Source: Fibrobacter succinogenes (GTDB lineage: Bacteria > Fibrobacterota > Fibrobacteria > Fibrobacterales > Fibrobacteraceae). Taken from it: DNA of 64,000 nucleotides. Positions 6,514-58,400 of the stretch are shown here, piece after piece. The stretch lies in the NCBI GenBank assembly GCA_902768715.1, contig CACXMH010000013.1, forward strand, positions 410-64,409. The letters run 5' to 3'. The notes below the pieces were generated by a model that did not search any database, had not been told where the DNA came from, and worked only from the letters and a program-made list of their open reading frames with translations. Each line of letters starts with the position of its first letter. Positions within the stretch are counted from its first letter, which is position 1. A program made the position numbers and the translations under genes.

Positions 6514-6566
6514 GCGGATCCTCGCCTTGGTTCGACGCAGCTCACCACAGGTCGCGAGGATGACGT
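6514..6566. repeat. GGATCCTCGC...GCGAGGATGAC hairpin repeat (long-loop variant)
   Basis: The arms GGATCCTCGC and GCGAGGATGAC are separated by about 27 nt. A near-identical copy lies at 22567-22617. Confidence 0.8.
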
Positions 6567-20412: not shown

Positions 20413-20485
20413 GATGTCATCCTCGTGAGAGAATGTCATCCCCGCCCGTTCGGCTTGCTCAGGGCAGGCTCCGGCGGGGATCTCC
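20413..20485. repeat. GTCATCC-family repeats (two heads) with an ATCCCCGCC...GGCGGGGAT long hairpin and a GGGGATCTCC tail
   Basis: gatGTCATCCtcg... aatGTCATCCCCGCC cgttcggcttgctcagggcaggctcc GGCGGGGATCTCC. The loop shares gctcagggcaggct with 50966-51013. Confidence 0.75.
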
Positions 20486-22546: not shown

Positions 22547-22652
22547 ACCCTAATACCTACATCTAGCGGATCCTCGCCTTGGTTCGACTTCGCTTACCAC
22601 AGGTCGCGAGGATGACAATCCTAGCCCCTAGATCCTAGATCCTAACCCCTGG
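22547..22652. repeat. Composite repeat: 3 heptads, GGATCCTCGC...GCGAGGATGAC hairpin, then 5 CTAG-type heptads
   Basis: accctaa tacctac atctag, then the hairpin at 22567-22617, then atcctag cccctag atcctag atcctaa cccctgg. The last heptads contain the stop codon of the 22642-23646 gene. Confidence 0.8.
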
Positions 22653-27533: not shown

Positions 27534-28547
27534 CTACTCTTCTACAACCAGGTCCATGGCCCGTTGGAGCATTCCGGCGGCGTCTTTTGTTTTGGGGGCT
27601 TCTTGGCTCAAGACCTGACGGAATTTTCGGGCGCCGGGGAGTCCAGTGAACAGCCCGTAGAGGTGGCGTGTGAGGATGGTAGCTGGAGTCCCTTTGGAAA
27701 ATTCCTTTTCCACATAGGGCAGATAGGCTTCGAGAACCGCTTTGCGGGACGCGGGCTTCCCTTCTTTTGTCATTCCCGGCTTGGCCGGGAATCTCCCATC
27801 ACAGAATATTCTCTCGTCGGCATCCCGCAGGAACCAAGGATTCTCGTAGGCTTCGCGACCCACCATCACGCCGTCCAGGTCTTTCAGCTGTTCTTCTACC
27901 TGGTCCATGGTTTTGATGCCGCCGTTGATGGAAATGTTCAGCTGGGGCATCTCGGCCTTTAAATTGTGGACAAATTCATATTTCAACGGCGGAACTTCCC
28001 GGTTCTCCTTGGGACTGAGCCCCTTGAGCCAGGCCTTTCGGGCGTGTATAATGAAAATTCGGCAGCCTGCGTCGGCGATAGTCCCGACAAAGTTCCGGAA
28101 AAATTCCCAGCTGTCGAATTCATCTACGCCGATGCGGCACTTGATGGAAACGGGAATGGAGACGGCGTCTTGCATGGCCTTGAAACAGTCCGCCACCAGG
28201 TTCTTGTCCTTCATGAGGCAGGCACCGAAGTTTCCGTTCTGTACCCGGTCCGAAGGGCATCCGCAGTTCAGGTTCACTTCGCCAAAGCCTGCGCATTCCA
28301 CCATCTTGCTTGCCGCCGCAAGTTCTGCAGGGTCGCTTCCGCCCAGTTGCAGCACCGCGGGCATTTCGCAGTCTTCGTGGCCCAGGAACAGTTCCGGGTC
28401 CTTGCAGTGCAAAAGTCCTGTAGATACCACCATCTCGCTGTAGAGCAAGATGTTCTTGGAAATCAACCGCAAAAAATACCGCTCGTGACGGTCGGTGCAG
28501 TCCAGCATGGGGGCGATAGAAAGCCGTCGGTTGAAATCCAGGTCCAT
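27534..28547 (-). CDS. dusA: tRNA-dihydrouridine synthase A
   Basis: N-terminal RLSIAPMLDCTDRHERYFLRL and a TIM-barrel Dus pattern (NLNCGCPS, IKCRIG, IIHARKA). Confidence 0.85.
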   Translation of the reverse strand: MDLDFNRRLSIAPMLDCTDRHERYFLRLISKNILLYSEMVVSTGLLHCKDPELFLGHEDCEMPAVLQLGGSDPAELAAASKMVECAGFGEVNLNCGCPSDRVQNGNFGACLMKDKNLVADCFKAMQDAVSIPVSIKCRIGVDEFDSWEFFRNFVGTIADAGCRIFIIHARKAWLKGLSPKENREVPPLKYEFVHNLKAEMPQLNISINGGIKTMDQVEEQLKDLDGVMVGREAYENPWFLRDADERIFCDGRFPAKPGMTKEGKPASRKAVLEAYLPYVEKEFSKGTPATILTRHLYGLFTGLPGARKFRQVLSQEAPKTKDAAGMLQRAMDLVVEE

Positions 28548-28562
28548 GGGGGGAAAGATAGT

Positions 28563-28711
28563 AATTAGGGGTTAGGTATTAGGTAATAGGTTGTAGGTAT
28601 TAGGGGTGCAGGTTTCAAGAAGCGTCATCCTGAGGAGTGTAGCGACGAAGGATCCAGTCTGTAGGAATAGGTAAACTGTGGTTTTGGGTCGCTTCGCTTT
28701 GAGGAGTGAGG
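28563..28711 (-). repeat. ~150-nt composite intergenic element (heptad array, GTCATCC...GGATCC hairpin, conserved flank); inverted copy of 41989-42137
   Basis: The reverse complement aligns by eye almost base-for-base with 41989-42137 (ctcaaagc.aa.cgacc.aaaccacagtttacctattcctac.gactggatccttcgtcgct.cactcctcaggatgac.cttcttg.aacctgcaccccta...). Confidence 0.85.
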
Positions 28712-28734
28712 TTCGAGGCGCGAGGTTTGGGAAA

Positions 28735-28763
28735 TGTCATCCTCGCGAAGGCGAGGATCCGCC
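28735..28763. repeat. GTCATCCTCGC gaag GCGAGGATCC hairpin repeat (short-loop variant)
   Basis: Perfect ATCCTCGC/GCGAGGAT stem. The same unit occurs at 53013-53040. Confidence 0.85.
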
Positions 28764-28785
28764 AAACACTAGCCATTTTTCTATA

Positions 28786-29706
28786 ATGCTTACCATGAGC
28801 CTGATTAAAAACATTGTCGTAGCGGGCGGGACCCATGGAAACGAGCGGACAGGTGTCCGCCTGGTGGAAAAGTGGATGGAATACCCCGAATGCTACAGCT
28901 CCTGTTGCCCAAGCGCCAAGGTGGAACTGGTGCTTTCGAACCCGGAGGCGGTCCGGCAGAACAGGCGGTACCGCGACCACGACCTGAACAGGGCTTTTTC
29001 ACAGGTGTGCCTGGACATGAGCGCAGAACCCCAGGAATACGAGTTCCGCCGTGCACGGGAACTGAACCGCATCTACGGCCCCAAGGGAACCGGCACAAAG
29101 ACAGACCTGTTGCTGGACGTGCACAATACGGGAGCCAACATGGGGCTGTGCCTGATCCTTTCGGCGCGGGACCCTTTCACTATGAAAGCCTCCGCCGTGC
29201 TGACCCAGGAATTCAAGGACGCCTGGATTTATTACCAACCCGAAGAGCGGAGCATGTCGCCTTACTTTGGCACGGTGGCCAAGGCGGACGTGTGCATCGA
29301 GATTGGCCCCCAGCAGCACGGCACCCTGGATGCACGCCTGTTCGAGGAATCGGAAAGTCTTGTGAAGCGTTACCTGGAACTTGCGGAGGAATGGAACCGT
29401 GGGGAACTCCAGAAGCGTGCCCCTATTCAGGTGGAAGTGTTTACGCAACTTCGGGACTTGGGTTACCCCAAGGCCTGGACGGGAGCGCCCATCGAGGCCA
29501 TGATTCATCCCGATTTGTTGGGCCGTGACTTTGGCGAACTGAAAAAGGGCGACAAGTTGTTCCGCACCTTCGACGGCAAGGACATTCTGTACCAGGGCGA
29601 GGCTGACGGACGCGAGAGCGTGTGGCCCATCTTTATCAACGAACCCGCCTACTACGAGAAGGACATCGCCATGAGCCTTACGGTAAGGACCGTGGAGGAG
29701 TGGTGA
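28786..29706 (+). CDS. Aspartoacylase / succinylglutamate desuccinylase family zinc hydrolase
   Basis: N-terminal IVVAGGTHGNERTG motif and DLNRAF. The start is placed at the ATG at 28786 (or 28795), because the upstream part of the track ORF lies in repeats. Confidence 0.75.
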   Translation: MLTMSLIKNIVVAGGTHGNERTGVRLVEKWMEYPECYSSCCPSAKVELVLSNPEAVRQNRRYRDHDLNRAFSQVCLDMSAEPQEYEFRRARELNRIYGPKGTGTKTDLLLDVHNTGANMGLCLILSARDPFTMKASAVLTQEFKDAWIYYQPEERSMSPYFGTVAKADVCIEIGPQQHGTLDARLFEESESLVKRYLELAEEWNRGELQKRAPIQVEVFTQLRDLGYPKAWTGAPIEAMIHPDLLGRDFGELKKGDKLFRTFDGKDILYQGEADGRESVWPIFINEPAYYEKDIAMSLTVRTVEEW

Positions 29707-33654: not shown

Positions 33655-33737
33655 GTCATCCTGGAGCGCGTAGCGCGATAGGATCCACCCCAATTTGTCA
33701 TGCCCCGTCATCCTGGAGCGAAGCGACGGGATCCAGT
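33655..33737. repeat. Two GTCATCCTGGAGCG...GGATCC hairpin repeats
   Basis: gtcatcctggagcgcgtagcgcgataggatcc and gtcatcctggagcgaagcgacgggatccagtc. The second resembles 28623-28658 and 42047-42078. Confidence 0.8.
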
Positions 33738-33974: not shown

Positions 33975-34004
33975 TGTCATCCCCGACTTGGTCGGGGATC
34001 TCCC
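33975..34004. repeat. TGTCATCCCCGAC ttg GTCGGGGATCTCC hairpin repeat
   Basis: Perfect ATCCCCGAC/GTCGGGGAT stem with the GGGGATCTCC tail also seen at 18630-18639 and 20476-20485. Confidence 0.8.
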
Positions 34005-39258: not shown

Positions 39259-39323
39259 AAAGCCTTCTTGTTGTGGCGGAATATAGAAAAATCCGCCCGA
39301 AATATGGACGAGGTGAAAAGGAG

Positions 39324-39343
39324 ATGCCCGCCTTCGCGGGCAT
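39324..39343. repeat. ATGCCCGC cttc GCGGGCAT hairpin repeat
   Basis: Perfect 8-bp stem. A related copy is at 18490-18511 and a half-copy at 6468-6480. Confidence 0.75.
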
Positions 39344-39368
39344 GACAAATCGAAGAAAGGACGGTCGT

Positions 39369-39461
39369 CCGTGAGCAACAAAGCCCCTGGTATTAACCAG
39401 GGGCGGTTGCGAGAGTGAGCGCAGTCCGGAGAATTTGCTCCTGACTTTGGCGCGAACGGTC
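39369..39461 (-). repeat. Conserved ~95-nt two-hairpin element immediately 3' of ilvN (copy A)
   Basis: The minus strand reads TAAgc GACCGTTCGCGCCAAAGTCAGGAGCAAATTCTCCGGACTGCGCTCACTCTCGCAACC GCCCCTGG ttaata CCAGGGGC TTTGTTGCTCAC. It matches 55852-56041. Confidence 0.85.
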
Positions 39462-41988: not shown

Positions 41989-42137
41989 CCTCACACTTCA
42001 AAGCAAAACGACCTCAAACCACAGTTTACCTATTCCTACGGACTGGATCCTTCGTCGCTGCACTCCTCAGGATGACACTTCTTGTAACCTGCACCCCTAC
42101 AACCTACAACCTACAACCTAACCACTAGCCCCTAACC
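41989..42137 (+). repeat. ~150-nt composite intergenic element, inverted copy of 28563-28711, ending at the rnhB ATG
   Basis: The modules are a conserved flank, the hairpin GGATCCTTCGTCGCTGCACTCCTCAGGATGAC, then the heptads cctgcac ccctaca acctaca acctaca acctaac cactagc ccctaac. Confidence 0.85.
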
Positions 42138-42857
42138 ATGAAATACAAGAATCCCGACTTTATGTCAGCCGTCACCACTCCTATTGAGGGTGAAATTGCC
42201 TTCCGCAACTACGCCGAATCTACTTTTGGCCCTAATTATATTATAGTAGGTATCGACGAAGTTGGCCGCGGCCCGTTGGCGGGCCCTGTGGTGGCTTGTG
42301 CCGCCGTGCTCAAATCTGCCGATATTTTGTCCGTATTGAACGATTCGAAAAAGTTCACTCGACCCAAGCGAGAAGCTATTTACGACAAAGTAAAAGATGC
42401 CTGTGAATGCTATGCCATCGCCAGCGCCAGCGTTGAGGAAATTGACCGCCTGAACATCTTGGAAGCCGATTTCTTGGCCATGCGGCGGGCATTGCAGGCG
42501 TTGGGTATGACGGAAATCACGGAAAAACAGCCCGAACTACCCGTGGAGGTCCGGGGACATTTTAAGCCGGGTGCGACCGTTCTAGTAGCGGTGGATGGAA
42601 ATTTGAAAATTCGCGGTTTGGACCAGGAGTGCCAGTTCCCCGTGATAAAAGGGGACGGTTTGGTGGCCTCTATTTCTGCGGCATCAATCCTTGCTAAGGT
42701 CTTCCGTGATCGCTATATGGACCGCCTGGCTCAGGAATATCCGGGTTACGGCTTTGAAAAACATGCTGGCTACGGCACTAAGGCACACCTGGCCGCCATT
42801 CGCAAGCAGGGCTTTTCGCCGGTGCACCGCAAGACGTTCCATCCGAAAGGACTGTAG
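42138..42857 (+). CDS. rnhB: Ribonuclease HII
   Basis: IVGIDEVGRGPLAGPVV catalytic motif, DSKK, and a C-terminal HR.TF motif. Confidence 0.9.
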   Translation: MKYKNPDFMSAVTTPIEGEIAFRNYAESTFGPNYIIVGIDEVGRGPLAGPVVACAAVLKSADILSVLNDSKKFTRPKREAIYDKVKDACECYAIASASVEEIDRLNILEADFLAMRRALQALGMTEITEKQPELPVEVRGHFKPGATVLVAVDGNLKIRGLDQECQFPVIKGDGLVASISAASILAKVFRDRYMDRLAQEYPGYGFEKHAGYGTKAHLAAIRKQGFSPVHRKTFHPKGL

Positions 42858-42860
42858 AAA

Positions 42861-42936
42861 ATGAGTAATGAGTTGCGAGTTGTGAGTCGTGAGTAGTGGG
42901 AAATTACACCCCTCACACCCCACACTTCACATCTAG
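42861..42936. repeat. Dyad-symmetric heptad array (11 units)
   Basis: atgagta atgagtt gcgagtt gtgagtc gtgagta gtgggaa attacac ccctcac accccac acttcac atctag. The left-arm GTGAG units face right-arm CTCAC units. Confidence 0.85.
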
Positions 42937-43062
42937 AAAACGCTCTGGGAACAGAAAAATGCCCATTTTGGGGCGTTTCTTAGAAAAAACTTGCACGAAT
43001 GGGTTATTCTTTATATATTTCCCCGTGATTTTAATGCAAACTCTTTTATGAATGGAGAATCT

Positions 43063-44115
43063 ATGAAGAAACTTGCAATGGTTGTTTTCCTTGCCTCTAT
43101 GGTGGGCGGGGCTTATGCTCAGGCTCCTGCTGCACCCGCTCCCGCACCGGCTCCTGCGGCCGCACCGGCTCCTGCCGCTGCTCCTGCACCAGCCCCCGCT
43201 GCACAGCCTGCCCCTGCCGCACAACCGGTAGCCGCAGCCCCTGCTGCTGAAGCGGCTCCTGCTGCACCTGTAGCCGAAGCCCCTGCCGCAGATCCCTGCG
43301 CTGTCGATTCCCTGGGTCAGCCGATTAACGCTGACGCTTGCGCCGCCGAACAGGCTCGCCAGCAGGCGGTAGCCGATTCTATCGCTGCCGCCGAAGAAGC
43401 TGCCCGTCAGCAGGCAATTGCGGACTCCATCGCCGCCGAACAGGCTCGCCAGCAGGCTATAGCTGATTCTATCGCCGCTGCCGAAGAAGCCCGCAAGCAG
43501 GCCGAGGCCGATTCTATTGCCGCCGCTGAAGCTGCCCAGAAGGCCGAAGCCGACAAGGCTGCCGCAGCAGGTCGCCTTGCTCTTGGTATTACCGGGTCGG
43601 CGGGCTTCGGTATGTTTAATGTCAAGTACGACGACAACCACTTTAAGGACTTCCCCTTTACTTTTGGGGTGAGCGGACTTTTCACTAAGGGTATGTTCGG
43701 CGCTCGCTTGGCCGGAACCATGCAGTACAATCGCCTCTATGTGGGTGAATCCCGCAACCGTACCGTAAACGAAGGTTACTGGCGCGCTGGTGCCGGCCTC
43801 TACGGACGTTTTATGCCCAACCAGAAAGAGGACGGACTTATTGTTGAACTGGGCGTTTCCGGTGCATGGGTCACTTCCAATGACATCGTTCTGTACCCCA
43901 ATGCTTCCAAGCACGCCTCTGTGGTTTACAAGCCCCAAGCCCAATATGATGTTGAACTGGGATTCGGTTACGGGATCAATTTTGCCGGTATGGCCGGTGA
44001 ACTGGGTGCTTATGCCGCCTATGACATCCTTGAGACTATGGAATTCACCAGCGACACAGATGGCCGTGCTTGGCATGTCGGTGCTCGTGCCACATTCTGG
44101 CTTCTTAATCTTTAA
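43063..44115 (+). CDS. Secreted/outer-membrane protein with (AP)n and AEQARQQAIADSIAA repeats and a beta-barrel-like C-terminal half
   Basis: Signal peptide MKKLAMVVFLASMVGGAYAQ, an Ala/Pro-rich tract, about 4 copies of the A(E/Q)ARQQA(I/V)ADSIAA repeat, and alternating aromatic beta-strand patterns. Confidence 0.6.
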   Translation: MKKLAMVVFLASMVGGAYAQAPAAPAPAPAPAAAPAPAAAPAPAPAAQPAPAAQPVAAAPAAEAAPAAPVAEAPAADPCAVDSLGQPINADACAAEQARQQAVADSIAAAEEAARQQAIADSIAAEQARQQAIADSIAAAEEARKQAEADSIAAAEAAQKAEADKAAAAGRLALGITGSAGFGMFNVKYDDNHFKDFPFTFGVSGLFTKGMFGARLAGTMQYNRLYVGESRNRTVNEGYWRAGAGLYGRFMPNQKEDGLIVELGVSGAWVTSNDIVLYPNASKHASVVYKPQAQYDVELGFGYGINFAGMAGELGAYAAYDILETMEFTSDTDGRAWHVGARATFWLLNL

Positions 44116-44166: not shown

Positions 44167-46068
44167 ATGAAACATAAACTCTTGACCCTCGCCTCGGCTG
44201 CGGCTCTGCTCGCTGCTTGTAGCGACTCCTCGGTTTCCGATGCCAATGACGAAATCAAGGACAAGGCCACCGTGACCTTTATGGTCGTGGACAACAATAC
44301 CAACCTCCCGTTGGAAAATGTTGAGGTCTATTTCCGTCCGACCGATAAGACCAAGTACACTGACTCTGCAGGTACCAGCGTCTGGAAAGATGTGGAATAC
44401 GGTGAAGATATTTACTGGGATTTCAAGCTTGATGGCTATGCTATGAAGCGTTTCAAGTACACCTTTACGGATGATATCGCCAATGACGTGGCCCGTGTAA
44501 AGGATAAGCACCCCAGGATTGACATGTACAAGACGGGTGTGACTGTCAAGGGTAAGTTCTATTACACCGACGTGGAAACGGGTAACTACCTTCCTGCCGC
44601 CAAGGTGAAGGTCTATGCCAAGTACACCGGTGATGCCGAAATCTATCCTAACGAAGTTTATACCACCACCGCGGAAGACGGTTCTTATGAATTCAAGAAC
44701 ATGGCTGCCGACGTGCAAATCACTGTAAGTGGTGAACGCTTCATCCTGGAAGGCACCAACATCGTCTATGACGAGACTGTCATTGACTCCTTTGCTCAGC
44801 GCAAGGGCGAAGCCAAGGAAGTGGTCAAGGAACTTGACCCCAAGGCCGCTCCGGTGCTTGGCCTTACTCCGGTGCTCCTCTCCAGCAACCTGAAGAAGAT
44901 TGACTCCACCACTGCCCTGCAGCTGGAGTTCTCTGAAGACCTGGAAAAGGATTCCGTGAAGACGGAACATGTCTATGTCCAAAACGCTGCAGGTAAGAGA
45001 GTTGCCGTGGTGGTGTCTTACAATGCCGACAACAAGACCGTGACCGTGAAGCCCGCTTCTGGCAAGTGGGTCGATGGCAACGACTACAAGGTCAATTTCG
45101 GTGTTTGGACCAAGACCGCTATCAAGGATCAGGATGCTGATGGTGGCGTTCGTGACTTCTCCGTGGGTACCGTGAAGATTCCGGGTAAGGCCGAAAATGT
45201 GAAGCTTGACACAGCCAAGAACAAGGACGTGGTGATTAGCTTCTACGGTGAACGCACCTATGCCACCCGTAACGACTCAATTGGTTACAATGCCATCATC
45301 AGCCTGATTTGGAAGGAAGTGTCCAAGGGTGTCAAGGGCTACAATGTCTATGTGAAGGGCGACAATGCTGAAAATGCTGACTTTGTCAAGGTTCAGGAAT
45401 TGGGCGCCAGTGCCCATGCAACTTCCATTGACGTTGCTTCGTTCTTGAACGACGACAACAATATGAAATATCCTGTTAGCGCCAAGGAAGTGAAGACCGT
45501 CCAGGTTATCGTGCTGCCCTTCAGCTCTGCTGGTGAATCCGACGCTTCTAAGGCCGATGTGATTACGGTCAAGGTGGCTGATAAGGCCAAGGCCAAGATG
45601 GACACTTATGAAAAAGCCTCTGTTAAGAGCGTGGAAACCCTTAAGGCTTCTGCGGGTTACGCTTGCACGGGTGAAAATGTGACTACTTGCCCAGTCTCGG
45701 CATCTACCGAAGCCGAAGTTCTTGCTGCTGATTATTTCGCTCTTGACTACGTTATCGACTTTACCCCTGTTGAAAAGGATGGTGCTGCCGGTTACCTCGT
45801 GTACTTCAAGAATGGTAACACTTGGGTAGAAGTGGCTTCTACGACTGCGGCTGCTACCAAGATTACCGTAACGCACAACTCCGTTGAGAATGGTCCCTTC
45901 TGGGAGAAGGCGCTGCAGAACAAGTCTTCTGTCACCAATAATGATGCGGAATTTGCCGTGGTGCCGTACTTCCTTTCTGCAACTAGTGAGAAGATTGCTT
46001 CTACCTCGCTCGGCAAGACCGGAACGCAGTCTCGTAAGATTGCCTCGATTATTGACGACCTTGAGTAA
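44167..46068 (+). CDS. Large lipoprotein with carboxypeptidase-regulatory-like and Ig-like (SbsA-type) domains
   Basis: Lipobox LLAACSDS. There are beta-sandwich-like repeats and a segment TALQLEFSEDLEKDSV...VTVKPAS that is typical of Big_5-type domains. Confidence 0.55.
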   Translation: MKHKLLTLASAAALLAACSDSSVSDANDEIKDKATVTFMVVDNNTNLPLENVEVYFRPTDKTKYTDSAGTSVWKDVEYGEDIYWDFKLDGYAMKRFKYTFTDDIANDVARVKDKHPRIDMYKTGVTVKGKFYYTDVETGNYLPAAKVKVYAKYTGDAEIYPNEVYTTTAEDGSYEFKNMAADVQITVSGERFILEGTNIVYDETVIDSFAQRKGEAKEVVKELDPKAAPVLGLTPVLLSSNLKKIDSTTALQLEFSEDLEKDSVKTEHVYVQNAAGKRVAVVVSYNADNKTVTVKPASGKWVDGNDYKVNFGVWTKTAIKDQDADGGVRDFSVGTVKIPGKAENVKLDTAKNKDVVISFYGERTYATRNDSIGYNAIISLIWKEVSKGVKGYNVYVKGDNAENADFVKVQELGASAHATSIDVASFLNDDNNMKYPVSAKEVKTVQVIVLPFSSAGESDASKADVITVKVADKAKAKMDTYEKASVKSVETLKASAGYACTGENVTTCPVSASTEAEVLAADYFALDYVIDFTPVEKDGAAGYLVYFKNGNTWVEVASTTAAATKITVTHNSVENGPFWEKALQNKSSVTNNDAEFAVVPYFLSATSEKIASTSLGKTGTQSRKIASIIDDLE

Positions 46069-46093
46069 TCGACAATCTTAATCGATGTCTTTC

Positions 46094-46127
46094 AAAAGAC
46101 CGTGTCCTTCGGGGCATGGTCTTTTTT
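46094..46127 (+). terminator. Imperfect hairpin plus T-run
   Basis: AAAAGACCGTGTCC ttcg GGGCATGGTC TTTTTT. Confidence 0.55.
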
Positions 46128-46163
46128 CTATATTGTCTCTAGCGATTTTAACCGGAGGTTCTT

Positions 46164-49323: not shown

Positions 49324-49904
49324 AAAACATCGTCAAGATTGCATTGATTTCTAGCGCTGCCTGCCTTGCATTGGTGGCGTGTGCCAAGAAGCAGCAACCC
49401 CAGACTGACCCTGCTGCCGAAGCTACTCCTGCCGCTGCCGCAGGCCAGGAAGCAGCTCCTGCCATGACTCAGGCCCAGGCTGATTCCCTGGCTGCCGAAC
49501 AGGCCCGCCTAGAGGCGGAACGCCTGGAAGCAGAACGCGCCCGTCTGGAAGCGCTTATTAACCAGATTATGTCTGAAGACGTTTACTTTGACTTTGACCG
49601 TTCGGAACTCACAGAAAAGGCCAAGGAACTGCTGGCCCAAGTGGGCGAACTGTTGCTCAAGGAACAGCGCTTCACCATCACCATCGAAGGCCACACCGAT
49701 GCCCGCGGTACAGAAGACTATAACTTTACTTTGGGTGCAAAGCGCGCCATGAAGGTGAAGGAATTCCTGGCCGCCTATGGTATCGAGAACAGCCGTATGG
49801 AATCGGTGAGTTACGGTAAGGAAGCCCCGAAGGCCGCTGGTGAAACGGAAGAAGCCTATTCCCAGAACCGCCGTGCCAACTTCCGCGTGAATATCAAGCA
49901 GTAA
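49320..49904 (+). CDS. pal: Peptidoglycan-associated lipoprotein (OmpA family)
   Basis: Lipobox LALVACAK. The OmpA_C domain has VYFDFDRSELT, IEGHTDARGTEDYNFTLGAKRA and NRRANF. Confidence 0.88.
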   Translation: MKNIVKIALISSAACLALVACAKKQQPQTDPAAEATPAAAAGQEAAPAMTQAQADSLAAEQARLEAERLEAERARLEALINQIMSEDVYFDFDRSELTEKAKELLAQVGELLLKEQRFTITIEGHTDARGTEDYNFTLGAKRAMKVKEFLAAYGIENSRMESVSYGKEAPKAAGETEEAYSQNRRANFRVNIKQ

Positions 49905-49988
49905 TTATAGGTTTTAGGTTATAGGTATTAGGTTTTAGGTAGTAGGTATTAGGTCCGAGGCCCTAGCCCCTAGATCCTAGCCCCTAAA
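49905..49988. repeat. Dyad-symmetric heptad array (12 units) between pal and ybgF
   Basis: ttatagg ttttagg ttatagg tattagg ttttagg tagtagg tattagg tccgagg ccctagc ccctaga tcctagc ccctaaa. Confidence 0.9.
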
Positions 49989-50024
49989 TTCCAACAATCT
50001 ATTCATTCTTCAACAATTACGAAT

Positions 50025-50960
50025 ATGAAACGTTTATCGATTTGTATTGCTGCAACGCTTATAGCCCTTACGGGCTGTTCCAAGATTACCATGCTCCGTA
50101 CCGAGGAGATGAAGGCTGTGGGTAGCGATGTGCAGACGGGTATGCAGCAGGGTCTGGATTCTGCCGTGCTGAAACTTTCTGCAGAGAACGATTCCCTGCG
50201 TGCGGAGATGGATAGTCTGAAGGCTCAACTGGAGGCTTCTGCCCTGGTGCAAAAACGCATGATGGCCGAAGTCACCATGCTGTCGCGCCGTATGGGTGAT
50301 GAATCGGAAAGGAACGATTCCAGGCAAGAAGAAATCATCTACCGCTTGGATATGCTGCTGGGCAAGAGCGACAAGATTCTGGCCAAGAAGGTTGTGGTCA
50401 GCGGTGCTCCTGCGGCTCCCATTTCTATGGACAGCCTGGAGCGTGAAGCCGAAAAGCTGGTGGAAGCCGAAGCCATGTTCAATACGGCCCGTTCCGACTA
50501 CCATCGCGGTGAATACAAGCTTGCCTACGCCGGTTTCAAGCAGGTCTATGAACAGATGAAGACCGGTGAACTTGGGGAGAATTCCCTTTATTGGATGGCG
50601 CTGTGCCTGATTGACGCCAACCAGGTGGAAAAGGCGAAGAAGGTGTTTGTGAGCCTCGCGGACGCTTTCCCCGAAGGCCAGAAGGTCTGCACTACCATGT
50701 TCAAGCTGGCGGCTATCTACAGCACCGAAGGCAACATCGATATGCAGAAGCAGTACCTGCAGAAAATTCTGAATAGCAAGACTTGCTCTACTTCGGGAGA
50801 ATTCGAACAGGCGGCAGAAATCTTGCAAGAGATTCTGGAACAGGAAACTCAGACGGGTCCCAAGACTGCCGAACCATCGAATGGTCCTGAGGCCGCCGCA
50901 CCTGCGACGGATGCCCCTGCGACAGAAGCTCAGCCTGCCGCACCAGCGCCTGCTCCGTGA
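50025..50960 (+). CDS. Tol-Pal system protein YbgF/CpoB-like (coiled coil plus TPR)
   Basis: Lipoprotein-like signal (LIALTGCS), an N-terminal coiled coil, C-terminal TPR-like repeats, and its position after pal. Confidence 0.7.
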   Translation: MKRLSICIAATLIALTGCSKITMLRTEEMKAVGSDVQTGMQQGLDSAVLKLSAENDSLRAEMDSLKAQLEASALVQKRMMAEVTMLSRRMGDESERNDSRQEEIIYRLDMLLGKSDKILAKKVVVSGAPAAPISMDSLEREAEKLVEAEAMFNTARSDYHRGEYKLAYAGFKQVYEQMKTGELGENSLYWMALCLIDANQVEKAKKVFVSLADAFPEGQKVCTTMFKLAAIYSTEGNIDMQKQYLQKILNSKTCSTSGEFEQAAEILQEILEQETQTGPKTAEPSNGPEAAAPATDAPATEAQPAAPAPAP

Positions 50961-50965
50961 TTCTA

Positions 50966-51013
50966 GATGGCGGCTCCCCTCGACTGCGCTCAGGGCAGGC
51001 TGACCGCCATGAC
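50966..51013. repeat. ATGGCGG...CCGCCATGAC hairpin repeat with a gctcagggcaggct loop
   Basis: gATGGCGGctcccctcgactgcgctcagggcaggctgaCCGCCATgac. The loop is shared with 20447-20470. Confidence 0.7.
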
Positions 51014-51018
51014 GAAAT

Positions 51019-51054
51019 AAAAAAGGCGAGTCAGATGACTCGCCCTTTCTTTAT
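51019..51054. terminator. Bidirectional intrinsic terminator
   Basis: AAAAAA GGCGAGTC agat GACTCGCC CTTTCTTT between convergent genes. Confidence 0.75.
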
Positions 51055-51061
51055 ACTTTGA

Positions 51062-52156
51062 TTACTTGATGGTACTGGTCAGGCGGAAGGCGAGACCGAC
51101 GTCGCTGACTTCGTTTTCGCTATAGACGCTGAACTGCAGCTTGGACTTGCCGATGTTACGGACCAGGGCCACCGTCCATGCCCAGTCATCCATTTCGGCC
51201 TTGCTGCCTGCCATAATCTGCCTGTCGTTGATGTATTCCCCTTCTACCATAAGGTTGGAAAGGAGCACGTTCAGTCCAGGAACCAGGCTGACGGGAAGTT
51301 CCAGGCCGACATATGTGGGCTGGTAGTAAATTCCCGGCTGGAAATATTTGGATTCCGGAGCGATATAGTTGGAAGCTTCGGTATCGAGGTCATCATCCTG
51401 TGTGTAGATGCAGGCGTATTCACCATAGAGACGCAGGTTCGGGATAATGGAGTAGCTTGCGTAGGCGGCTACACGGTGGGTGAGGTAGGCGGTGTTCTGT
51501 ACCACGTCGATGAGGTTTCCGCGGTAGGCCACTTTCACATCCAGCGGGAAGGTAAATTTCATGTCGTCTTCTACACGGAGGTAGCCCTGGTTGGCATTGC
51601 CGTCTTTGGTGGCGAGCATGGCGTTCAGTTGGTTGTTCTGGTGCTTCCAGCCCAGTTCAATGGCGTTGTGGCTGTAGTCGCGCATCCAGAGACCGCGCTT
51701 GGTCAGGTCCTTGTCGATATAGGTACCGTAGTGAGTCGATTGGGACCAGTCCGTTTTCCAGCGGCCGATTTTCAGGTTCACCTGGTCAAGGTCTGTAACC
51801 TTCCACTTGTAGTTTGCCCAGTAGAGGTCAGCGAGAATCTTGTCTTGTGCGGACTTGGTGGCCTTGGCGTTGCCATTTTCATCGGTGGCTACATCCGTTA
51901 CGTTCTTGTTGCCGAATTCCGGAGCGAAAATGCGGAGCATGATGGTTCCGTCCAGGTTGTCGCTTTTGTACTGACCGCCCACGTTGGCGCGAATCCATCC
52001 GCTGCTGAAATTATGGTCATCGTCATTGATGGACTTGGTGACCTGGGTTTGCACATTTCCCTTGAGGGTCATATTGTCGGTAACGCTGGCTGCGTCTGCG
52101 GCATAGGCGGCAATGCCTGTGGCGAGAATAGCTGCACCGAAGATTCCGTAATTCAT
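51062..52156 (-). CDS. Outer-membrane beta-barrel (porin-like) hypothetical protein
   Basis: Signal peptide (ILATGIAAYAADA). Alternating hydrophobic/aromatic beta-strand pattern throughout. Confidence 0.6.
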   Translation of the reverse strand: MNYGIFGAAILATGIAAYAADAASVTDNMTLKGNVQTQVTKSINDDDHNFSSGWIRANVGGQYKSDNLDGTIMLRIFAPEFGNKNVTDVATDENGNAKATKSAQDKILADLYWANYKWKVTDLDQVNLKIGRWKTDWSQSTHYGTYIDKDLTKRGLWMRDYSHNAIELGWKHQNNQLNAMLATKDGNANQGYLRVEDDMKFTFPLDVKVAYRGNLIDVVQNTAYLTHRVAAYASYSIIPNLRLYGEYACIYTQDDDLDTEASNYIAPESKYFQPGIYYQPTYVGLELPVSLVPGLNVLLSNLMVEGEYINDRQIMAGSKAEMDDWAWTVALVRNIGKSKLQFSVYSENEVSDVGLAFRLTSTIK

Positions 52157-52241
52157 AGGGTGAAACTCCTGTTACATTTGTACGGGACAAATTTAGTTTT
52201 TTTAATGTTATTTTGTTAAATTGAGGTAAAAAGAGGTTGTT

Positions 52242-52787
52242 ATGCAAATACTTTTTTTGATGGCCGACGGTTTCGAGGAAACCGAATTCGTCACACCTTT
52301 CGACTACCTGCAGCGGGCGGGTTTTGAGGTTGCTCTCGCAAGCGTTTCCGGTAAGGCCGAAGTGGTAGGATCCCATGGCCTTAAAATCCAGACGGATTTT
52401 GCACTTTCGGGAGCCGATACCGCAAAGTTCGGCGCCGTCCTTTTGCCGGGTGGTGGGACGGGCGTCAGGAACCTGAAGGCCTCCGCCGATGTAGAGAAGG
52501 TCATCTGCGATTTCAACGATCAGGACAAGTGGATTCTTGCCATCTGCGCCGCTCCTTTGGTACTGAGCAAGGCGGGAATCCTGGTGGATAGAACCGTTAC
52601 TTGTTTCCCGGGCTGCGAAGCGGAGCTGGTCTGCAACAAGTTTCTGGAAGATCGTGTAGTGGTGGACGGCAACATTGTCACCAGTCGCGGCGCGGGCACC
52701 GCCGAAGAATTTGCCTTCGAGTGCATCGCTCAGCTGGGCAGCCGCGACCTTGCGGAAAAAATCCGCAAGCAGGTGGTAGCGCGGTAG
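52242..52787 (+). CDS. DJ-1/PfpI/ThiJ-family protein
   Basis: LLPGG, the nucleophile elbow AICAAP, and VTSRGAGTA. Confidence 0.85.
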   Translation: MQILFLMADGFEETEFVTPFDYLQRAGFEVALASVSGKAEVVGSHGLKIQTDFALSGADTAKFGAVLLPGGGTGVRNLKASADVEKVICDFNDQDKWILAICAAPLVLSKAGILVDRTVTCFPGCEAELVCNKFLEDRVVVDGNIVTSRGAGTAEEFAFECIAQLGSRDLAEKIRKQVVAR

Positions 52788-52962
52788 ATGTGAGGTCGGG
52801 GCTTCGCCCCTTTGAGGTATGGGGTATGAGGTGTGGTCCTTCAGGTCAAGCAATGTGGAATGTGTAGTGAATCATGAGTTGTGAGTTGTGAGGTGTGGGT
52901 CGTGAGTAGTGTGTAATGTGTAGTGTGGAGTGTGGAGTGTGGGATGAATAATGAACGATGAT
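52788..52962 (+). repeat. Heptad array, about 25 consecutive 7-nt units of type NNNTGNG
   Basis: In register from 52788: ...caatgtg gaatgtg tagtgaa tcatgag ttgtgag ttgtgag gtgtggg tcgtgag tagtgtg taatgtg tagtgtg gagtgtg gagtgtg ggatgaa taatgaa cgatgat. Confidence 0.9.
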
Positions 52963-52970
52963 TCCATCTT

Positions 52971-53099
52971 CGTCATGTTCGCGAAGGCGAACATCTGCTA
53001 GCTGTTATCAAGCGGATCCTCGCCTTCGCGAGGATGACGTTCCTCAAAGCGAAGCGACCTCAAACCCCTAGCCCCTAGATCCTAGCCCCTAGCCCCTAA
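52971..53099. repeat. Two hairpin repeats, the conserved flank module, and 5 CCCCTAG-type heptads
   Basis: GTTCGC gaag GCGAAC; GGATCCTCGC cttc GCGAGGATGAC; cctcaaagcgaagcgacctcaaacc (the same flank as in 28563-28711 and 41989-42137); cccctag cccctag atcctag cccctag cccctaa. Confidence 0.85.
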
Positions 53100-53106
53100 T
53101 CTCTAT

Positions 53107-54204
53107 CTATTTCTCGATAATTGCCGAGGCCACGATGCCGTCGCCGGCGTAGAGCACCATGATTTGCCCGGGGGTGGCGGCGAATTGCGGCGTGTCGAAC
53201 CGGATAGAAATTCGGTTGTCTGTAAGTTCGGTAATGCTTGCTTCGGCGAAGGTGTGACCCAGCCGGATTTTTGCCTGGAGTTTCTGCTGCAGCAGGGGAG
53301 AATCCTTGGAAACCATCAGGTTCAGCTGGCTCCCGCTGACTTCGCTGCATTGCAACAGACTGCGAGGGCCGAGCACCACTTGATTCTTCTTGACGTCGAT
53401 GGCAATCACGAAAAGGGGCTCCGGCTGTCCGCCGATGTTCAGCCCTTTCCTTTGCCCGATGGTGTAATGGATGAACCCTTTGTGCTGCCCTAGGACTTTG
53501 CCGTTTACATCTACGAAGTCCCCGGGAACGTTGTCGCTTTCGTCAAAGAGCACGGAGTAGTCGCCGCATTCCAGAAAATCCTGGCTTTCTTTTTTGGAGG
53601 CAAAATCTTCCCAGCCGATTTTACGGGCCAGTTCCTTGACCTCTTCCTTGTGCATCTCGCCCAGCGGGAACAGCACCGACGAAAGCTGGTCTTCGGTTAG
53701 CCTGGAAAGGAAATAGGACTGGTCCTTGAAAGAGTCCCGGGCTTTCCACAGGAATGGTTCTTCGGGGCTTCTGAAATCCAGGCGGGCGTAGTGCCCCGTG
53801 GCAAAGTAGTCAAAATCTACGCCCATCTTGCGGACGGCGTGGAGCATGGCTCCGAACTTGATGGACTGGTTACAGCGTACACATGGGTTAGGCGTGCGGC
53901 CCGCCCGGTATTCGGCGCGGAAATAGTCCAGCACGTTTTTCTTGTATTCCTCTACCACGGAAACCACATGGAAGGGAATAGACAGGCGCTTGGCCACATT
54001 CTCGGCGGCTTCGATGCTTTCCCCTTCGTTGGGGCCGAAACATCCGGAGCGGCCCTCCACGATGGGCATGTCGATGGAACCGTCCCAGAGGGCCATGGTG
54101 ATGCCTATGACGTTGTAGCCCTTCTGCTGCAAGGTCCAGGCGGTAAGGGCGGAATCTACGCCTCCCGAAAGACCGACTGCTACTGTTTTGTTGCCTAGTT
54201 CCAT
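53107..54204 (-). CDS. mnmA: tRNA-specific 2-thiouridylase
   Basis: PP-loop VAVGLSGGVDSA, the CN..IKF motif, ATGHYA, and overall length. Confidence 0.92.
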   Translation of the reverse strand: MELGNKTVAVGLSGGVDSALTAWTLQQKGYNVIGITMALWDGSIDMPIVEGRSGCFGPNEGESIEAAENVAKRLSIPFHVVSVVEEYKKNVLDYFRAEYRAGRTPNPCVRCNQSIKFGAMLHAVRKMGVDFDYFATGHYARLDFRSPEEPFLWKARDSFKDQSYFLSRLTEDQLSSVLFPLGEMHKEEVKELARKIGWEDFASKKESQDFLECGDYSVLFDESDNVPGDFVDVNGKVLGQHKGFIHYTIGQRKGLNIGGQPEPLFVIAIDVKKNQVVLGPRSLLQCSEVSGSQLNLMVSKDSPLLQQKLQAKIRLGHTFAEASITELTDNRISIRFDTPQFAATPGQIMVLYAGDGIVASAIIEK

Positions 54205-55851: not shown

Positions 55852-55946
55852 GACCGTTCGTGCTAAAAGCCGGAGCAAATTCTCCGGCCGGCACTCACTC
55901 TCACAACCACGCTCGGTTAATACCGAGCGTTTGTTGTTCACAATAA
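55852..55946 (+). repeat. Conserved 95-nt two-hairpin element, copy B (directly after the efp TAA)
   Basis: GACCGTTCGTGCTAAAAG CCGGAG caaatt CTCCGG CCGGCACTCACTCTCACAACC ACGCTCGG ttaata CCGAGCGT TTGTTGTTCACAATAA. Confidence 0.9.
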
Positions 55947-56041
55947 GACCGTTCGTGCTAAAAGCCGGAGCAAATTCTCCGGACTGCACTCACTCTCGCA
56001 ACCGCCCCAGTTTAATAACTGGGGCTTTGTTGCTCACGTAG
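55947..56041 (+). repeat. Conserved 95-nt two-hairpin element, copy C (tandem to copy B)
   Basis: The same element, with the second stem changed to GCCCCAG tttaataa CTGGGGC. Confidence 0.9.
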
Positions 56042-56886: not shown

Positions 56887-57861
56887 TTATTTCAATGATT
56901 TTCTAAAGACCCGGGCGACTTCGTCCGGGTCGTCGCTTTTTAGCCAGCTGAGGGTCTCGGTACCGCGGTAGCTCCAGGCGAAAATATTGTCGATGCCAGC
57001 CTTGCGGCTTTCGGCTACGGCAATGGCCAGGTCGTTTTCGCGGCCCGCTTCGATCTGGTAGGCCTTAATCCACATTTGCACGGCCTTGCCGTATTTGGCG
57101 GCCACGGTCACGAGTTTGTGGGCGGTCTCGGCGTACTTTTCGCGAACCCATTCTTCGGTGGCGCCCCGTTCCCAGTAAGGATCGCTGGCGATTTCATCTA
57201 CGCTATCCATGGATGCCACGCGGCCCCAGTCGTTGAGGCCTGCCGGAAACCAGGGCGGCAACATGCACACGCAGTTACGCTTGCCACGGGCGTGAACATC
57301 TTCCGTCATTTCCTTCAAAAAGTCGATAAGCGAATCTTCGCGGAACTTCAACACGTCTTCGGTGAGTTCGGCGGGCATCTCGTAACCGAATTGCGCGCAG
57401 AACTTTTCGCGACATTTCTCACAACGGCAGCTCCAGTTCTGGAGTCCGCCCTTCTCAAAGTAAAAATGAGGTTCATCCCAGAAGATGGTGCTTACTTTGG
57501 TCGCACAGACGGATTCAATCCAGCGGTGCATGTAGGCCCGGAATTCCGGATGGTTGGGGCAGGCGGCCACCTTAGGCTTGCCGTCCAGTGCCACCTGGCA
57601 CAGGTCGTGGTTACGGGCGGTAAGTTCGGAATAGGCTTCTCCGCCGAATACGCGGCCCACTCCCCAGGGGTTCACATAGACTGTTAGACCTAGCTCGGCG
57701 GTCCGGTCCACGATTTCAGCCATGGTGTCGTAGTAATACTGCTGGTCTTCTTCGCTCCAAGTGTGGAGCACGGCGTTGAAACCTGCCGCCTTGATGTCTT
57801 GCATGTCGGTTAACGCATGCTTTGGCGTGCGTACGCCGAAATAACTGACGCCTTTAATCAT
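56887..57861 (-). CDS. Hypothetical TIM-barrel, glycoside-hydrolase-like protein
   Basis: Alternating beta/alpha pattern (GVSYFGV, GFNAVLHTW, GLTVYVNPWG, IFWDEPHF) plus a CRCEKCREKFC cluster. The family assignment is uncertain. Confidence 0.35.
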   Translation of the reverse strand: MIKGVSYFGVRTPKHALTDMQDIKAAGFNAVLHTWSEEDQQYYYDTMAEIVDRTAELGLTVYVNPWGVGRVFGGEAYSELTARNHDLCQVALDGKPKVAACPNHPEFRAYMHRWIESVCATKVSTIFWDEPHFYFEKGGLQNWSCRCEKCREKFCAQFGYEMPAELTEDVLKFREDSLIDFLKEMTEDVHARGKRNCVCMLPPWFPAGLNDWGRVASMDSVDEIASDPYWERGATEEWVREKYAETAHKLVTVAAKYGKAVQMWIKAYQIEAGRENDLAIAVAESRKAGIDNIFAWSYRGTETLSWLKSDDPDEVARVFRKSLK

Positions 57862-57883
57862 ACAGGCTCAATATAGAACTTAG

Positions 57884-57967
57884 GAGTAATGTGTAGTGTG
57901 TAATGTGTAATGAGAGGTGTACAATGTATAATCAGTCATTTCACATTATACATTCCACATCTCACAC
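57884..57967. repeat. Dyad-symmetric heptad array (12 units) containing a perfect 10-bp inverted repeat
   Basis: gagtaat gtgtagt gtgtaat gtgtaat gagaggt gtacaat gtataat cagtcat ttcacat tatacat tccacat ctcacac. AATGTATAAT (57923-57932) pairs with ATTATACATT (57945-57954). Confidence 0.9.
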
Positions 57968-57980
57968 CGCCGTGTAGCGG

Positions 57981-58400
57981 CTAGTTTTCTGCCCACTGTG
58001 GCGTAGGGGTTTTCCGCAGTACCTGGTCCAGGGTCTCCCGCCACTCGTCTTCGGTAAGTGGCCTGCGAATCCAGTACAGGCCCTCATCTTCTTTTTCGAT
58101 GGGCATGGTGTCCGGGACGATTTCTATGATCCAGGATTCGGGAATGCTGTTGCGGAGCCTCTTGCTGAAGGCGATGTTCATATCGGTGGGCCTGTCGGCG
58201 TGGTCAAAGATGATAAGCGCCGGGGAATCTCCCGTAATGAGCGCCGTCTCCAGGATGTTCGCCGCCTCTTCGATGGTATTGCAGGTGTACATGGTGGAAT
58301 CTTCGGCCATGTCGTTTTCTAGAAGCCAGCGGAGAGTCCACTGGCTCAGGCGGTCCAAGCTGCCCGGCGAAGAAGGGGCTATGAAGAATATGTGTCCCAC
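57981..58400 (-). CDS. Hypothetical protein, possibly a receiver-like (pseudo-receiver) fold
   Basis: 139 aa with a beta/alpha pattern that loosely resembles CheY (IFFIAPS, LIIFDHAD). The acidic pocket is not canonical. Confidence 0.3.
   Translation of the reverse strand: MGHIFFIAPSSPGSLDRLSQWTLRWLLENDMAEDSTMYTCNTIEEAANILETALITGDSPALIIFDHADRPTDMNIAFSKRLRNSIPESWIIEIVPDTMPIEKEDEGLYWIRRPLTEDEWRETLDQVLRKTPTPQWAEN

Follow-up and report, generated by a model that had tools for sequence, protein, structure and literature searches.

A repeat mosaic fills the DJ-1/PfpI-mnmA spacer

We analysed the spacer at positions 52788-53106 of a 64-kb stretch of Fibrobacter succinogenes contig CACXMH010000013.1 (the window, whose positions serve as coordinates below). 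The spacer lies between two convergent genes, a DJ-1/PfpI family gene and mnmA, and the sequence and the open reading frame (ORF) list showed that it is made of repeat modules from end to end. This agrees with an earlier note on this DNA, which had described the whole gap as repeat; its exact length is 319 nt rather than the 320 bp given there. Its sequence marks the block as a single copy of a mosaic element that is dispersed, and not as an array specific to this locus. The mosaic combines two known kinds of bacterial non-coding repeat, namely heptameric tandem arrays of the short tandemly repeated repetitive (STRR) or long simple sequence repeat (long SSR) class and palindromes resembling repetitive extragenic palindromes (REP) and bacterial interspersed mosaic elements (BIME). 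Our favoured explanation, to which we assign a probability of roughly 0.6, is that the tract is one minus-strand copy of a lineage-specific, dispersed, BIME-like mosaic of selfish or neutral repeats in a Fibrobacter clade, with growth by slippage and exchange of modules.

A 19-nt probe from the flank module of the tract, TTTGAGGTCGCTTCGCTTTGAGGA, found 33 metagenome loci, 28 of them Fibrobacter-like. An ordered composite was present in at least eight different gene contexts (comparison loci L045/L071, L048, L049, L052, L057, L064, L067, L070 and L075). It runs from about five TAGGGGN/TAGGATN units through the flank module and hairpins to 5-17 CTCACAA-type units, its C/A-rich heptads being of the CTCACAA/CACACTA type. 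Small hairpins characterise type A composites, and in type B their place is taken by two GTCAT...ATC palindromes in inverted orientation. The window tract belongs to type B and lies on the minus strand. Within the window the flank module recurs at 28680-28705 and within 41989-42135, the two further loci that had been reported for it. The earlier statement that the architecture recurs at least ten times holds for the arrays more than for the composite: eight scored arrays (about 12 segments) were found in seven spacers, and the full composite occurs just one to three times in the window. L067 is the orthologue of window spacer 28547-28796; compared with it, L067 keeps the edges and the flank module and has other modules between them. 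From such sequence comparisons, the mosaic is seen to alter through array length and module replacement.

The modules of the tract are listed in Table 1. The small hairpin module at its left end belongs to a type (TGAGGTC-stem-loop-stem-TTTGAGG) that also occurs in L004, L045, L056, L057, L059, L062 and L076, and the flank module looks like a collapsed version of it with a TTTGAGG heptad on either side. The earlier note had counted about 25 consecutive heptads, some 20 of them with TG at positions 4-5. The TG pattern was recovered, but in the register from 52788 it is carried by 17 of 25 units, and the uninterrupted in-phase array comprises 16. The 112 nt of this array contain 45 G, 36 T, 27 A and 4 C, and no complementary partner arm for it was found in the spacer; nor are the outer arrays of the tract reverse complements of each other. 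Both of the short-loop hairpins described before are present. They are, however, inverted copies of a single unit (83% complementary) and fold into one long hairpin, with predicted energies for 52971-53040 of -43.5 kcal/mol (z -7.8) on the plus strand and -40.3 kcal/mol (z -6.6) on the minus strand. Folds of the whole spacer were only moderately better than those of shuffles (z -2.2 on the plus strand and -3.95 on the minus strand). The five CCCCTAG heptads near mnmA were also confirmed. On the minus strand they contain four GGGG tracts spaced GGGG-3-GGGG-10-GGGG-3-GGGG, a motif that is found only there and is absent from the 16-unit TG array. Stop triplets, previously noted in the three plus-strand frames, occur in all three frames of both strands, at 4-8 per frame. 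As a likely side effect, the block would form a strong RNA or DNA hairpin barrier between the two convergent transcription units.

Period-7 arrays are frequent in Fibrobacter intergenic DNA

The lag-7 match fraction reached 0.81 over 63 nt, compared with a mean of 0.244 over the whole window, and Tandem Repeats Finder (TRF) placed period-7 arrays in the spacer at 52875-52911, 52902-52941 and 53065-53098. A diagonal scoring scan detected six lag-7 segments in the window, whereas 20 dinucleotide shuffles yielded no such segment. The remaining lags between 4 and 15 gave 0-1 segments in the same scan, with two at lag 14 (2 x 7), and a laxer threshold gave eight lag-7 arrays in the window against 0.16 in block shuffles. 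The period-7 signal described in the earlier note is real, and it is recurrent, intergenic and specific. Fibrobacter loci totalling 308 kb contained 33 lag-7 arrays, while each of the other lags between 4 and 12 gave 0-3, and a further 268 kb of Fibrobacter-like metagenome loci contained 32, against 0-1 at other lags, giving 65 lag-7 arrays in 576 kb of Fibrobacter DNA. None was detected in non-Fibrobacter control loci (131 kb in the same scan and another 52 kb). The sampling of arrays covers about 0.9 Mb of DNA from many loci, as opposed to one whole genome.

Long ORFs contain almost none of the arrays. In many cases just 0-4 nt separate the beginning of an array from a stop or start codon, and some spacers consist of heptads only, for example L005 7678-7800. 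Arrays were frequent in the window, L001 and L003-L007, but not in the short or contig-end-truncated L002, L006 and L012, and they were rare in relatives of the 73-95% MnmA identity group. The unit census gave at least 20 canonical unit types with copy numbers of 3-17. An AACTCAC-type unit was found in 11 arrays, and TAGGGG, TAGGAT and TAACTAG types recur. Heptads of TAACTAG together with TAACTGA were located at L003 11833-11856, at L004 12050-12073 and 15824-15841, and at L007 11866-11889 and 15613-15630, as well as in the L003 spacer orthologous to window 57861-57981. The named STRR1-3 units, which are reportedly CCCCAGT, TTGGTCA and CAACAGT, were absent from the census, indicating the same class of repeat but a different sequence family. 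The tract is an example of intergenic heptameric tandem repeats, as it shows an excess of head-to-tail 7-nt units, non-coding bias, occurrence at multiple loci and copy-number polymorphism in 7-nt steps.

The spacer is filled in some Fibrobacter species and empty in others

When species-representative genomes were scanned with MnmA, 13 Fibrobacter loci were returned in which MnmA is 94-98% identical, and three in which it is 73-74% identical. The 319-nt spacer was identical in 11 independent metagenome contigs from different samples, and three variant alleles were found: L035 and L039 lack exactly one CCCCTAG unit, L029 has lost 9 nt within the CCCCTAG array, and L044 carries an 80-nt deletion through which the TG array and hairpin 1 have each lost half of their length. 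In L003, L005 and L007, where MnmA is 98% identical, the two stop codons are 3 nt apart (TAA-GAA-CTA), and in L008 and L013 the mnmA and DJ-1/PfpI stops are separated by 17-18 nt. L004 and L006 have a 194-nt spacer composed of seven TGAGTTG units, small hairpins, the flank module TTTGAGGTCGCTTCGCTTTGAGGA and five CCCTAA-type units. The L001 spacer is about 400 nt long; its first ~95 nt and last heptads are as in the window and its middle differs. In L001, L003-L008 and L013, MnmA is 95-98% identical to that of the window. The L002 contig terminates inside the repeat. In filled and empty alleles alike, both coding sequences have the same ends (…QVVAR and …IEK before the stop codons), which means that the block arose by insertion or expansion, with the genes on both sides left intact, and is dispensable. 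In L003, L005 and L007, which have the 3-nt gap and no terminator, transcription of mnmA and that of DJ-1/PfpI, being convergent, must collide.

Gain and loss of units, which the earlier note had proposed to look for between strains, was observed as the exact 7-nt indels of L035 and L039 and also at other spacers. L057 has one CACCTCA unit more than L004, and the left arm of L071 has 12 units versus 5 in the orthologous L045. Each arm of the 49905-49987 arrays has a different number of units in the window than in L001, and in L006 ATTCGGA units take their place. Overall, orthologous spacers differed by 1 to 7 units. Units were also replaced. The spacer at 57861-57981 has the form (TGTAATG)n-loop-(CATTNCA)n in the window and L001, whereas L003, with the same flanks, has (GTGAGTN)n-loop-(TAACTSA)n; in L010 the site is occupied by ATTCCGA units, and in L009 it is empty. 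The predicted folds were -39.1 kcal/mol (z -5.1) for window 57886-57966, -41.8 kcal/mol for the window version in the comparison with L003, and -49.9 kcal/mol (z -6.8) for L003. Template switching in quasi-palindromes is an established mutational mechanism, and the co-variation of the arms despite turnover of their units fits both hairpin selection and homogenisation by such switching.

Arrays have a fixed strand polarity

Of 37 non-coding arrays, 33 are oriented with the G-rich strand pointing away from the closest gene; with orthologous copies dropped, the figure is about 25 of 28 (one-sided binomial ~1e-5). Adjacent pairs of arrays on the plus strand were ordered G then C seven times and C then G never, and all seven convergent spacers followed the polarity. 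The rule, 5'-G/T-rich...C/A-rich-3', is strand-symmetric and independent of gene orientation. The composition of the arrays is skewed, with 5% C on the G-rich strand and about 5% G on the C-rich strand. Stop triplets numbered 288 on the G-rich strand against 186 expected from composition, and 137 on the other strand against 80 expected. Start triplets on the C-rich strand were depleted (5 observed, ~20 expected), largely as a by-product of its poverty in G.

The hairpins belong to a family of REP-like palindromes

Ten short-loop copies of the palindrome aligned to GTCAT-N6-GNNG-N6-ATC. Their 8-bp stem is 96% paired, with compensatory changes in four of the eight pairs, and the 5' GTC tail is invariant. 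The covariation score was reached by no shuffle and collapsed in slid controls. This combination of stem pairing and covariation is the signature of a REP-like family. Dozens of extragenic GTCAT...ATC hairpins were found, and they form inverted doublets and mosaic combinations with other motifs, as do REP, BIME and REP doublets forming hairpins (REPIN). The earlier description as not REP holds only in part, since the hairpins of the tract are REP-like palindromes with covarying stems in an inverted doublet. Long-loop variants also exist, for example GTCATCCTCGCGACCTGTGG...AAGGCGAGGATC at 6517-6564 and 22569-22616. A Sphingopyxis control locus carries a motif of like shape, GTCATGCCGGACTTGATCCGGCATC, so this class of motif crosses phyla. 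Arrays are found on the 5' side of the hairpin, at its GTCAT end, in eight cases and on its 3' side in two. A strict coupling of arrays to the hairpins was not supported, as most of the 75 candidate hairpins have no neighbouring array.

Several other identities were considered for the tract. The earlier note was right that it is neither a clustered regularly interspaced short palindromic repeat (CRISPR) array, which has direct repeats of 23-47 nt and unique spacers of similar length, nor an ordinary microsatellite of 1-6 nt, since its units are 7 nt long and contiguous. A coding tract was ruled out because only chance ORFs of 40-88 aa overlap the spacer and stops are present in all six frames. 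An intrinsic terminator was ruled out by a scan of 52000-54000, which found none; the GGGGC-TTC-GCCCC hairpin is trailed by TTT only. No canonical promoter was found in the spacer by scan. At gathering thresholds, Rfam matched only two tRNAs in the whole window, and a permissive Rfam scan of 52700-53200 returned nothing credible, its top match scoring 24 bits against a threshold of 66.

Other copies and other features of the window

Table 1. Modules of the 52788-53106 tract, its flanking genes, and related arrays and palindromes in the window (one row includes positions in locus L015).
Feature	Position	Strand	Basis or remarks
DJ-1/PfpI family gene, left border	52242-52787	+	Stop TAG 52785-52787; ORF list; Pfam PF01965 on identical protein of metagenome contigs
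Small hairpin module TGTGAGGTC-GGGGC-TTC-GCCCC-TTTGAGG, TGAGG heptads on both sides	52789-52817	+	Sequence
About 3.7 TGRGG heptads (TTTGAGG TATGGGG TATGAGG TGTGG)	52811-52836	+	Phase differs from main array
Main heptad array, 16 in-phase NNNTGNN units	52851-52962	+	TG invariant in 16/16
REP-like hairpin GTCAT-GTTCGC-GAAG-GCGAAC-ATC	52972-52995	+	Regex match; family stem covariation
REP-like hairpin GTCAT-CCTCGC-GAAG-GCGAGG-ATC	53015-53038	-	Inverted partner of 52972-52995; identical copy at 28736-28759(+)
REPIN/BIME-like doublet, inverted pair of hairpin units, ~25-bp stem	52971-53040	both	Fold energies
24-nt flank module TTTGAGGTCGCTTCGCTTTGAGGA	53041-53064	-	Recurs in window; source of 19-nt probe that finds other loci
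Five CTAGGGG/CTAGGAT heptads (plus strand CCCCTAG)	53065-53099	-	TRF; starts 7 nt after mnmA stop
mnmA gene, right border	53107-54204	-	ORF list; Pfam PF03054 (tRNA_Me_trans), PF20259, PF20258
Half-element: G-rich TAGGGG/TAGGAT heptads, then GTCAT REP-like hairpin	22569-22650	-	
Second mosaic: TTAGGKN heptads, GTCAT hairpin, flank module, NNNGAGG heptads, GTCAT hairpin	28565-28759	+	
Inverted copy (88%) of 28565-28711, ending in CCTACAA/CCCCTAA array	41989-42137	-	Abuts start codon at 42138
GTGAGTN array, then complementary CAC-type arm	42860-42930	+	Convergent genes on either side
TAGGTNT array (7 units), then CCCTAGN array (4 units)	49905-49987	+	Start of tandem-gene spacer
Foldback of heptad arms (TGTAATG)n, loop, (CATTNCA)n	57886-57966	+	
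Scattered GTCAT-stem-loop-stem-(G)ATC palindromes in spacers	6517-6564, 20435-20482, 22569-22616, 28624-28654, 28736-28759, 33655-33733, 33976-34000, 39323-39346, 42046-42076; L015 17617-17641, 18070-18094		

The array pairs of the window are not all strong foldbacks, since weak hairpins (z -0.25 to -2.6) were predicted for 42850-42940 and 49900-49995. A conserved TTTTTCTATAAT/TATATT box was observed at window 28770-28798, in L067 and in L070. It ends about 6-8 nt before the downstream ATG, and the mosaics stop just upstream of it. Its sequence and placement suggest a promoter element of the -10 type, followed by a leader that in this Fibrobacter clade is very short or missing.

Repeats of a different kind, about 92 nt long, are present in three copies that are 82-89% identical, at 55852-55924(+), 55947-56038(+) and 39370-39461(-), two of them in tandem just after efp. 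Their predicted fold consists of hairpin 1, an unpaired ACUCACUCUC(A/G)CAACC segment and hairpin 2 with a U-rich tail (-39.5 to -46 kcal/mol, z -5 to -6.4), and hairpin 2 shows compensatory changes between copies. A weak Rfam match to Yfr1 was obtained (27 bits versus a gathering score of 38, E 0.0014). The copies are candidate multi-copy small RNA genes with a Yfr1-like layout.

Three further regions contain repeated coding sequence. Between 6437 and 18441, the minus-strand ORFs 6587-8473, 8470-11286, 11289-13754 and 15832-18441 are large paralogues that share segments of 100-300 nt, 60-80% identical, at matching positions; they look like a tandem cluster of genes for related multidomain signalling proteins. 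Within ORF 896-2959(-), positions 1208-1990 hold eight 63-nt copies at an exact spacing of 90 nt (180 nt across one gap), corresponding to a 30-residue protein repeat in the 687-aa ORF. In ORF 42913-44076(-), the coding sequence at 43110-43535 is tandemly repeated with periods of 12, 45 and 90 nt and has many Ala/Pro-type codons; the last few codons of this ORF overlap the C-rich heptad arm 42906-42930.

Comparison with known repeats

The earlier note knew of no description of such arrays. The class has in fact been published from Calothrix/Nostoc, Xanthomonas, Beggiatoaceae and Bacteroidetes (PMC4692102, PMC4679880). In the literature library searched, no papers on such repeats in Fibrobacter were found, and for this genus the absence of a description appears true; Fibrobacterota thus appears to be a new phylum for a known class of intergenic heptamer arrays. 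Mazel 1990, as cited in PMC4692102, described the STRR of Calothrix as intergenic heptanucleotide arrays. According to the quotations in PMC4692102 and PMC4679880, Mrazek 2007 found heptamers to be the most abundant class of long SSR and considered that the DNA-polymerase footprint may favour slippage by 7 nt. As portrayed in these citing papers, STRR and long SSR resemble the Fibrobacter arrays in their head-to-tail 7-nt units, marked preference for intergenic DNA, occurrence of several unit types at many loci of one genome, abundance that depends on the lineage, and length variation ascribed to slippage. In contrast to STRR, the Fibrobacter arrays, with the units TGAGTTG, TGTGTAG, TAGGTAT and TAGGGGC, are degenerate and joined to palindromes in a recurrent composite, in the phylum Fibrobacterota.

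Rehm et al. 2015 described GGGAATC arrays in Xanthomonas and GGGGAYT arrays in Nostoc, including inverted pairs between convergent genes and a polarity of the G-rich strand (PMC4692102) that 33 of the 37 Fibrobacter arrays share. The likeness extends to the intergenic location and to the extensive variation in length and sequence among close species (PMC4692102). There, one G-quadruplex-capable unit type was selected per organism, with four units preferred (PMC4692102), whereas in Fibrobacter only the CTAGGGG arrays carry a G-quadruplex-capable motif and the arrays are combined with REP-like hairpins. MacGregor 2015 reported TAACTGA and mixed heptamers in Beggiatoaceae, cyanobacteria and five Bacteroidetes, with indels in 7-nt steps, repeat-free relatives and assembly breaks inside repeats (PMC4679880). 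The Fibrobacter arrays share with these the mixture of heptamers within a spacer, the abutment on start or stop codons, the 7-nt steps between strains, the shorter spacers of repeat-free relatives and the broken contigs (PMC4679880). Most Maribeggiatoa arrays consist of 2-6 perfect copies, lie immediately upstream of start codons and share a single orientation (PMC4679880); the Fibrobacter arrays are longer and degenerate, lie on both sides of genes and often form pairs of inverted arms. The TAACTGA unit is not present in 52788-53106, but TAACTGA/TAACTAG do occur in Fibrobacter L003, L004 and L007. Neither Rehm 2015 nor MacGregor 2015 gives an established function for heptamer arrays (PMC4692102, PMC4679880).

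The REP, BIME and REPIN of Proteobacteria are, like the Fibrobacter palindromes, short imperfect palindromes with a conserved, unpaired tail, extragenic and of high copy number, which form inverted doublets with long folds and strain-variable mosaics with other motifs (PMC2817692, PMC3116915). The Fibrobacter family differs in its sequence, GTCAT-stem-GNNG-stem-ATC, and the outer heptad arrays are not a feature of BIME. Its TGAGGTC-hairpin-TTTGAGG modules between TGAGG heptads form a pattern like that of the small dispersed repeats (SDR) of Nostoc, although the sequences are unrelated to those of Nostoc. SDR (Elhai et al. 2008) are reportedly tiny modules that form hairpins, and the genome that carries them likewise abounds in tandem heptamers.

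Origin and possible roles of the mosaic

The explanation that we favour, a tolerated and dispersed mosaic, builds on established steps: filled sites versus a 3-nt gap in sister species, exact gain and loss of 7 nt, module swaps, and a composite found in many unrelated gene contexts. Arrays would lengthen via replication slippage in a 7-nt register. Inverted arms may stay alike via template switching in quasi-palindromes or via selection for pairing, and modules could spread by ectopic recombination or by a REP-type enzyme resembling the REP-associated tyrosine transposases (RAYT). The elements would persist because they are tolerated, the locus itself having no need of the block. In either orientation, the quasi-palindromic composite would present its stop-rich G/T strand toward the 3' end of a gene and its G-poor, nearly start-codon-free strand toward the 5' end of a gene; such a design would make it harmless in any spacer and hence tolerated. 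A number of observations weigh against this explanation. Passive slippage alone accounts neither for the exclusive period of 7 nor for the polarity in convergent spacers (7/7), where no 5' untranslated region is at stake. Arms remain complementary while their units turn over at a fixed locus, which selection for structure would also produce, and the excess of stop triplets on both strands hints at some constraint. Comparison of the empty site (GTAG-TTC-TTACC) with filled sites gave no recognisable target-site duplication or terminal inverted repeats, the marks of a miniature inverted-repeat transposable element (MITE). With regard to the presumed mechanism of spread, no RAYT or other transposase or enzyme was identified in these 64 kb of the genome, and tblastn with an approximate IS200 TnpA query against 870 kb of DNA, a weak test, gave nothing below E = 2.5.

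One alternative, which we consider unlikely but worth weighing, is a selected transcription insulator or RNA 3'-end element, kept because it would stop or buffer convergent and read-through transcription. Transcripts from either side would carry a stop-rich G/U array, a stable hairpin acting as exonuclease block or pause site, and a G-poor C/A array as candidate Rho loading site. Most Xanthomonas heptamer repeats are transcribed (PMC4692102). The strand-symmetric polarity, the very stable predicted hairpins (z -5 to -8), the ~5% G of the C-rich strand, the retention of the hairpin at 57886-57966 between species despite sequence turnover, and a spacer with no canonical terminator that could do the same job are all consistent with such a role. 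However, sister species with 98%-identical genes cope with a 3-nt spacer and no element, and arrays also occur upstream of genes and in divergent spacers. Canonical terminators with a stem and T-run are present elsewhere in the genome (e.g. in spacers 46068-46128 and 50960-51062), whereas the heptad hairpins have no U tract and their paired arms would not leave the C-rich arm free for Rho. The heptads might instead be a platform on which a multimeric protein that binds RNA or DNA meets a triplet at every seventh nucleotide, or (CTAGGGG)n could form a G-quadruplex with a regulatory role. UAG, UGA or GAG triplets do recur at exact 7-nt spacing on the G-rich strand, and Bacillus subtilis HutP binds UAG-N4-UAG-N4-UAG. 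The four GGGG tracts of 53065-53099(-), with loops of 3, 10 and 3 nt, and the in vitro formation of G-quadruplexes by the related GGGAATC and GGGGAYT repeats (PMC4692102) point the same way, as do arrays that abut start codons as in Beggiatoaceae (PMC4679880). For TAACTGA arrays, MacGregor proposed S1, Csp or CsrA-type binders. Nevertheless, at least 20 unit types coexist, most of them unable to form a G-quadruplex, copy number varies from 3 to 17, and unrelated units replace one another at the same locus in sister species. There is no link to a particular gene class, and Rehm et al. saw no regulatory role (PMC4692102). We regard a binding platform or regulatory G-quadruplex as highly improbable.

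A further idea is active directional synthesis, in which breaks, nicks or hairpin tips would have their 3' ends extended into arrays by reiterative copying of a short template (telomere-healing-like or hairpin-primed) or by a lineage-specific enzyme. From either side of the spacer, the G/T-rich strand would then always point 5' to 3' at its centre, much like two telomeres fused head to head. If true, this would jointly cover the single preferred unit length, the nearly C-free, almost three-letter G-rich strand (5% C), the polarity of the G-rich strand toward the centre on both strands regardless of gene orientation, and the frequent sharing of a unit by both inverted arms; the excess of arrays 5' of the GTCAT end of REP-like hairpins (8 versus 2 on the 3' side) is also in keeping with it. 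Against this stand three exceptions to the polarity, the many templates that so many unit sequences would demand, and the fact that no enzyme or template is known or was found. Ordinary slippage gives exact 7-nt indels between strains, and the polarity can also be derived from a quasi-palindromic mobile element plus selection. Active synthesis of the arrays seems improbable, and there is a slim chance that they are the trace of a clade-specific process of active directional 7-nt addition, possibly shared with cyanobacteria and Xanthomonas, for which reiterative templated synthesis or a dedicated enzyme linked to the GTCAT palindromes would be the candidates. An artefact of assembly or sequencing in low-complexity DNA would explain why some contigs end in such repeats (L002), as MacGregor noted likewise (PMC4679880). 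This possibility, raised in the earlier note, is negligible in view of the identical 319-nt spacer in the 11 independent metagenome contigs, the three variant alleles that differ by discrete indels, and the related composites in dozens of contigs from other projects.

Heptad blocks break metagenome assemblies and inflate differences in intergenic length between close metagenome-assembled genomes. Heptamer arrays are the commonest long simple repeat in many bacteria, and why the unit is 7 nt long and the orientation of the G-rich strand fixed is a long-standing question. The Fibrobacter clade provides a clean comparative system for it, with 3-nt empty sites and filled sites between flanking proteins that are 98% identical, visible gain and loss of units between strains, turnover of units in which the arms stay complementary, and a composite that ties the arrays to REP-like palindromes. 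Given a cultured member of this clade, slippage, a selected insulator and active synthesis could be tested directly.

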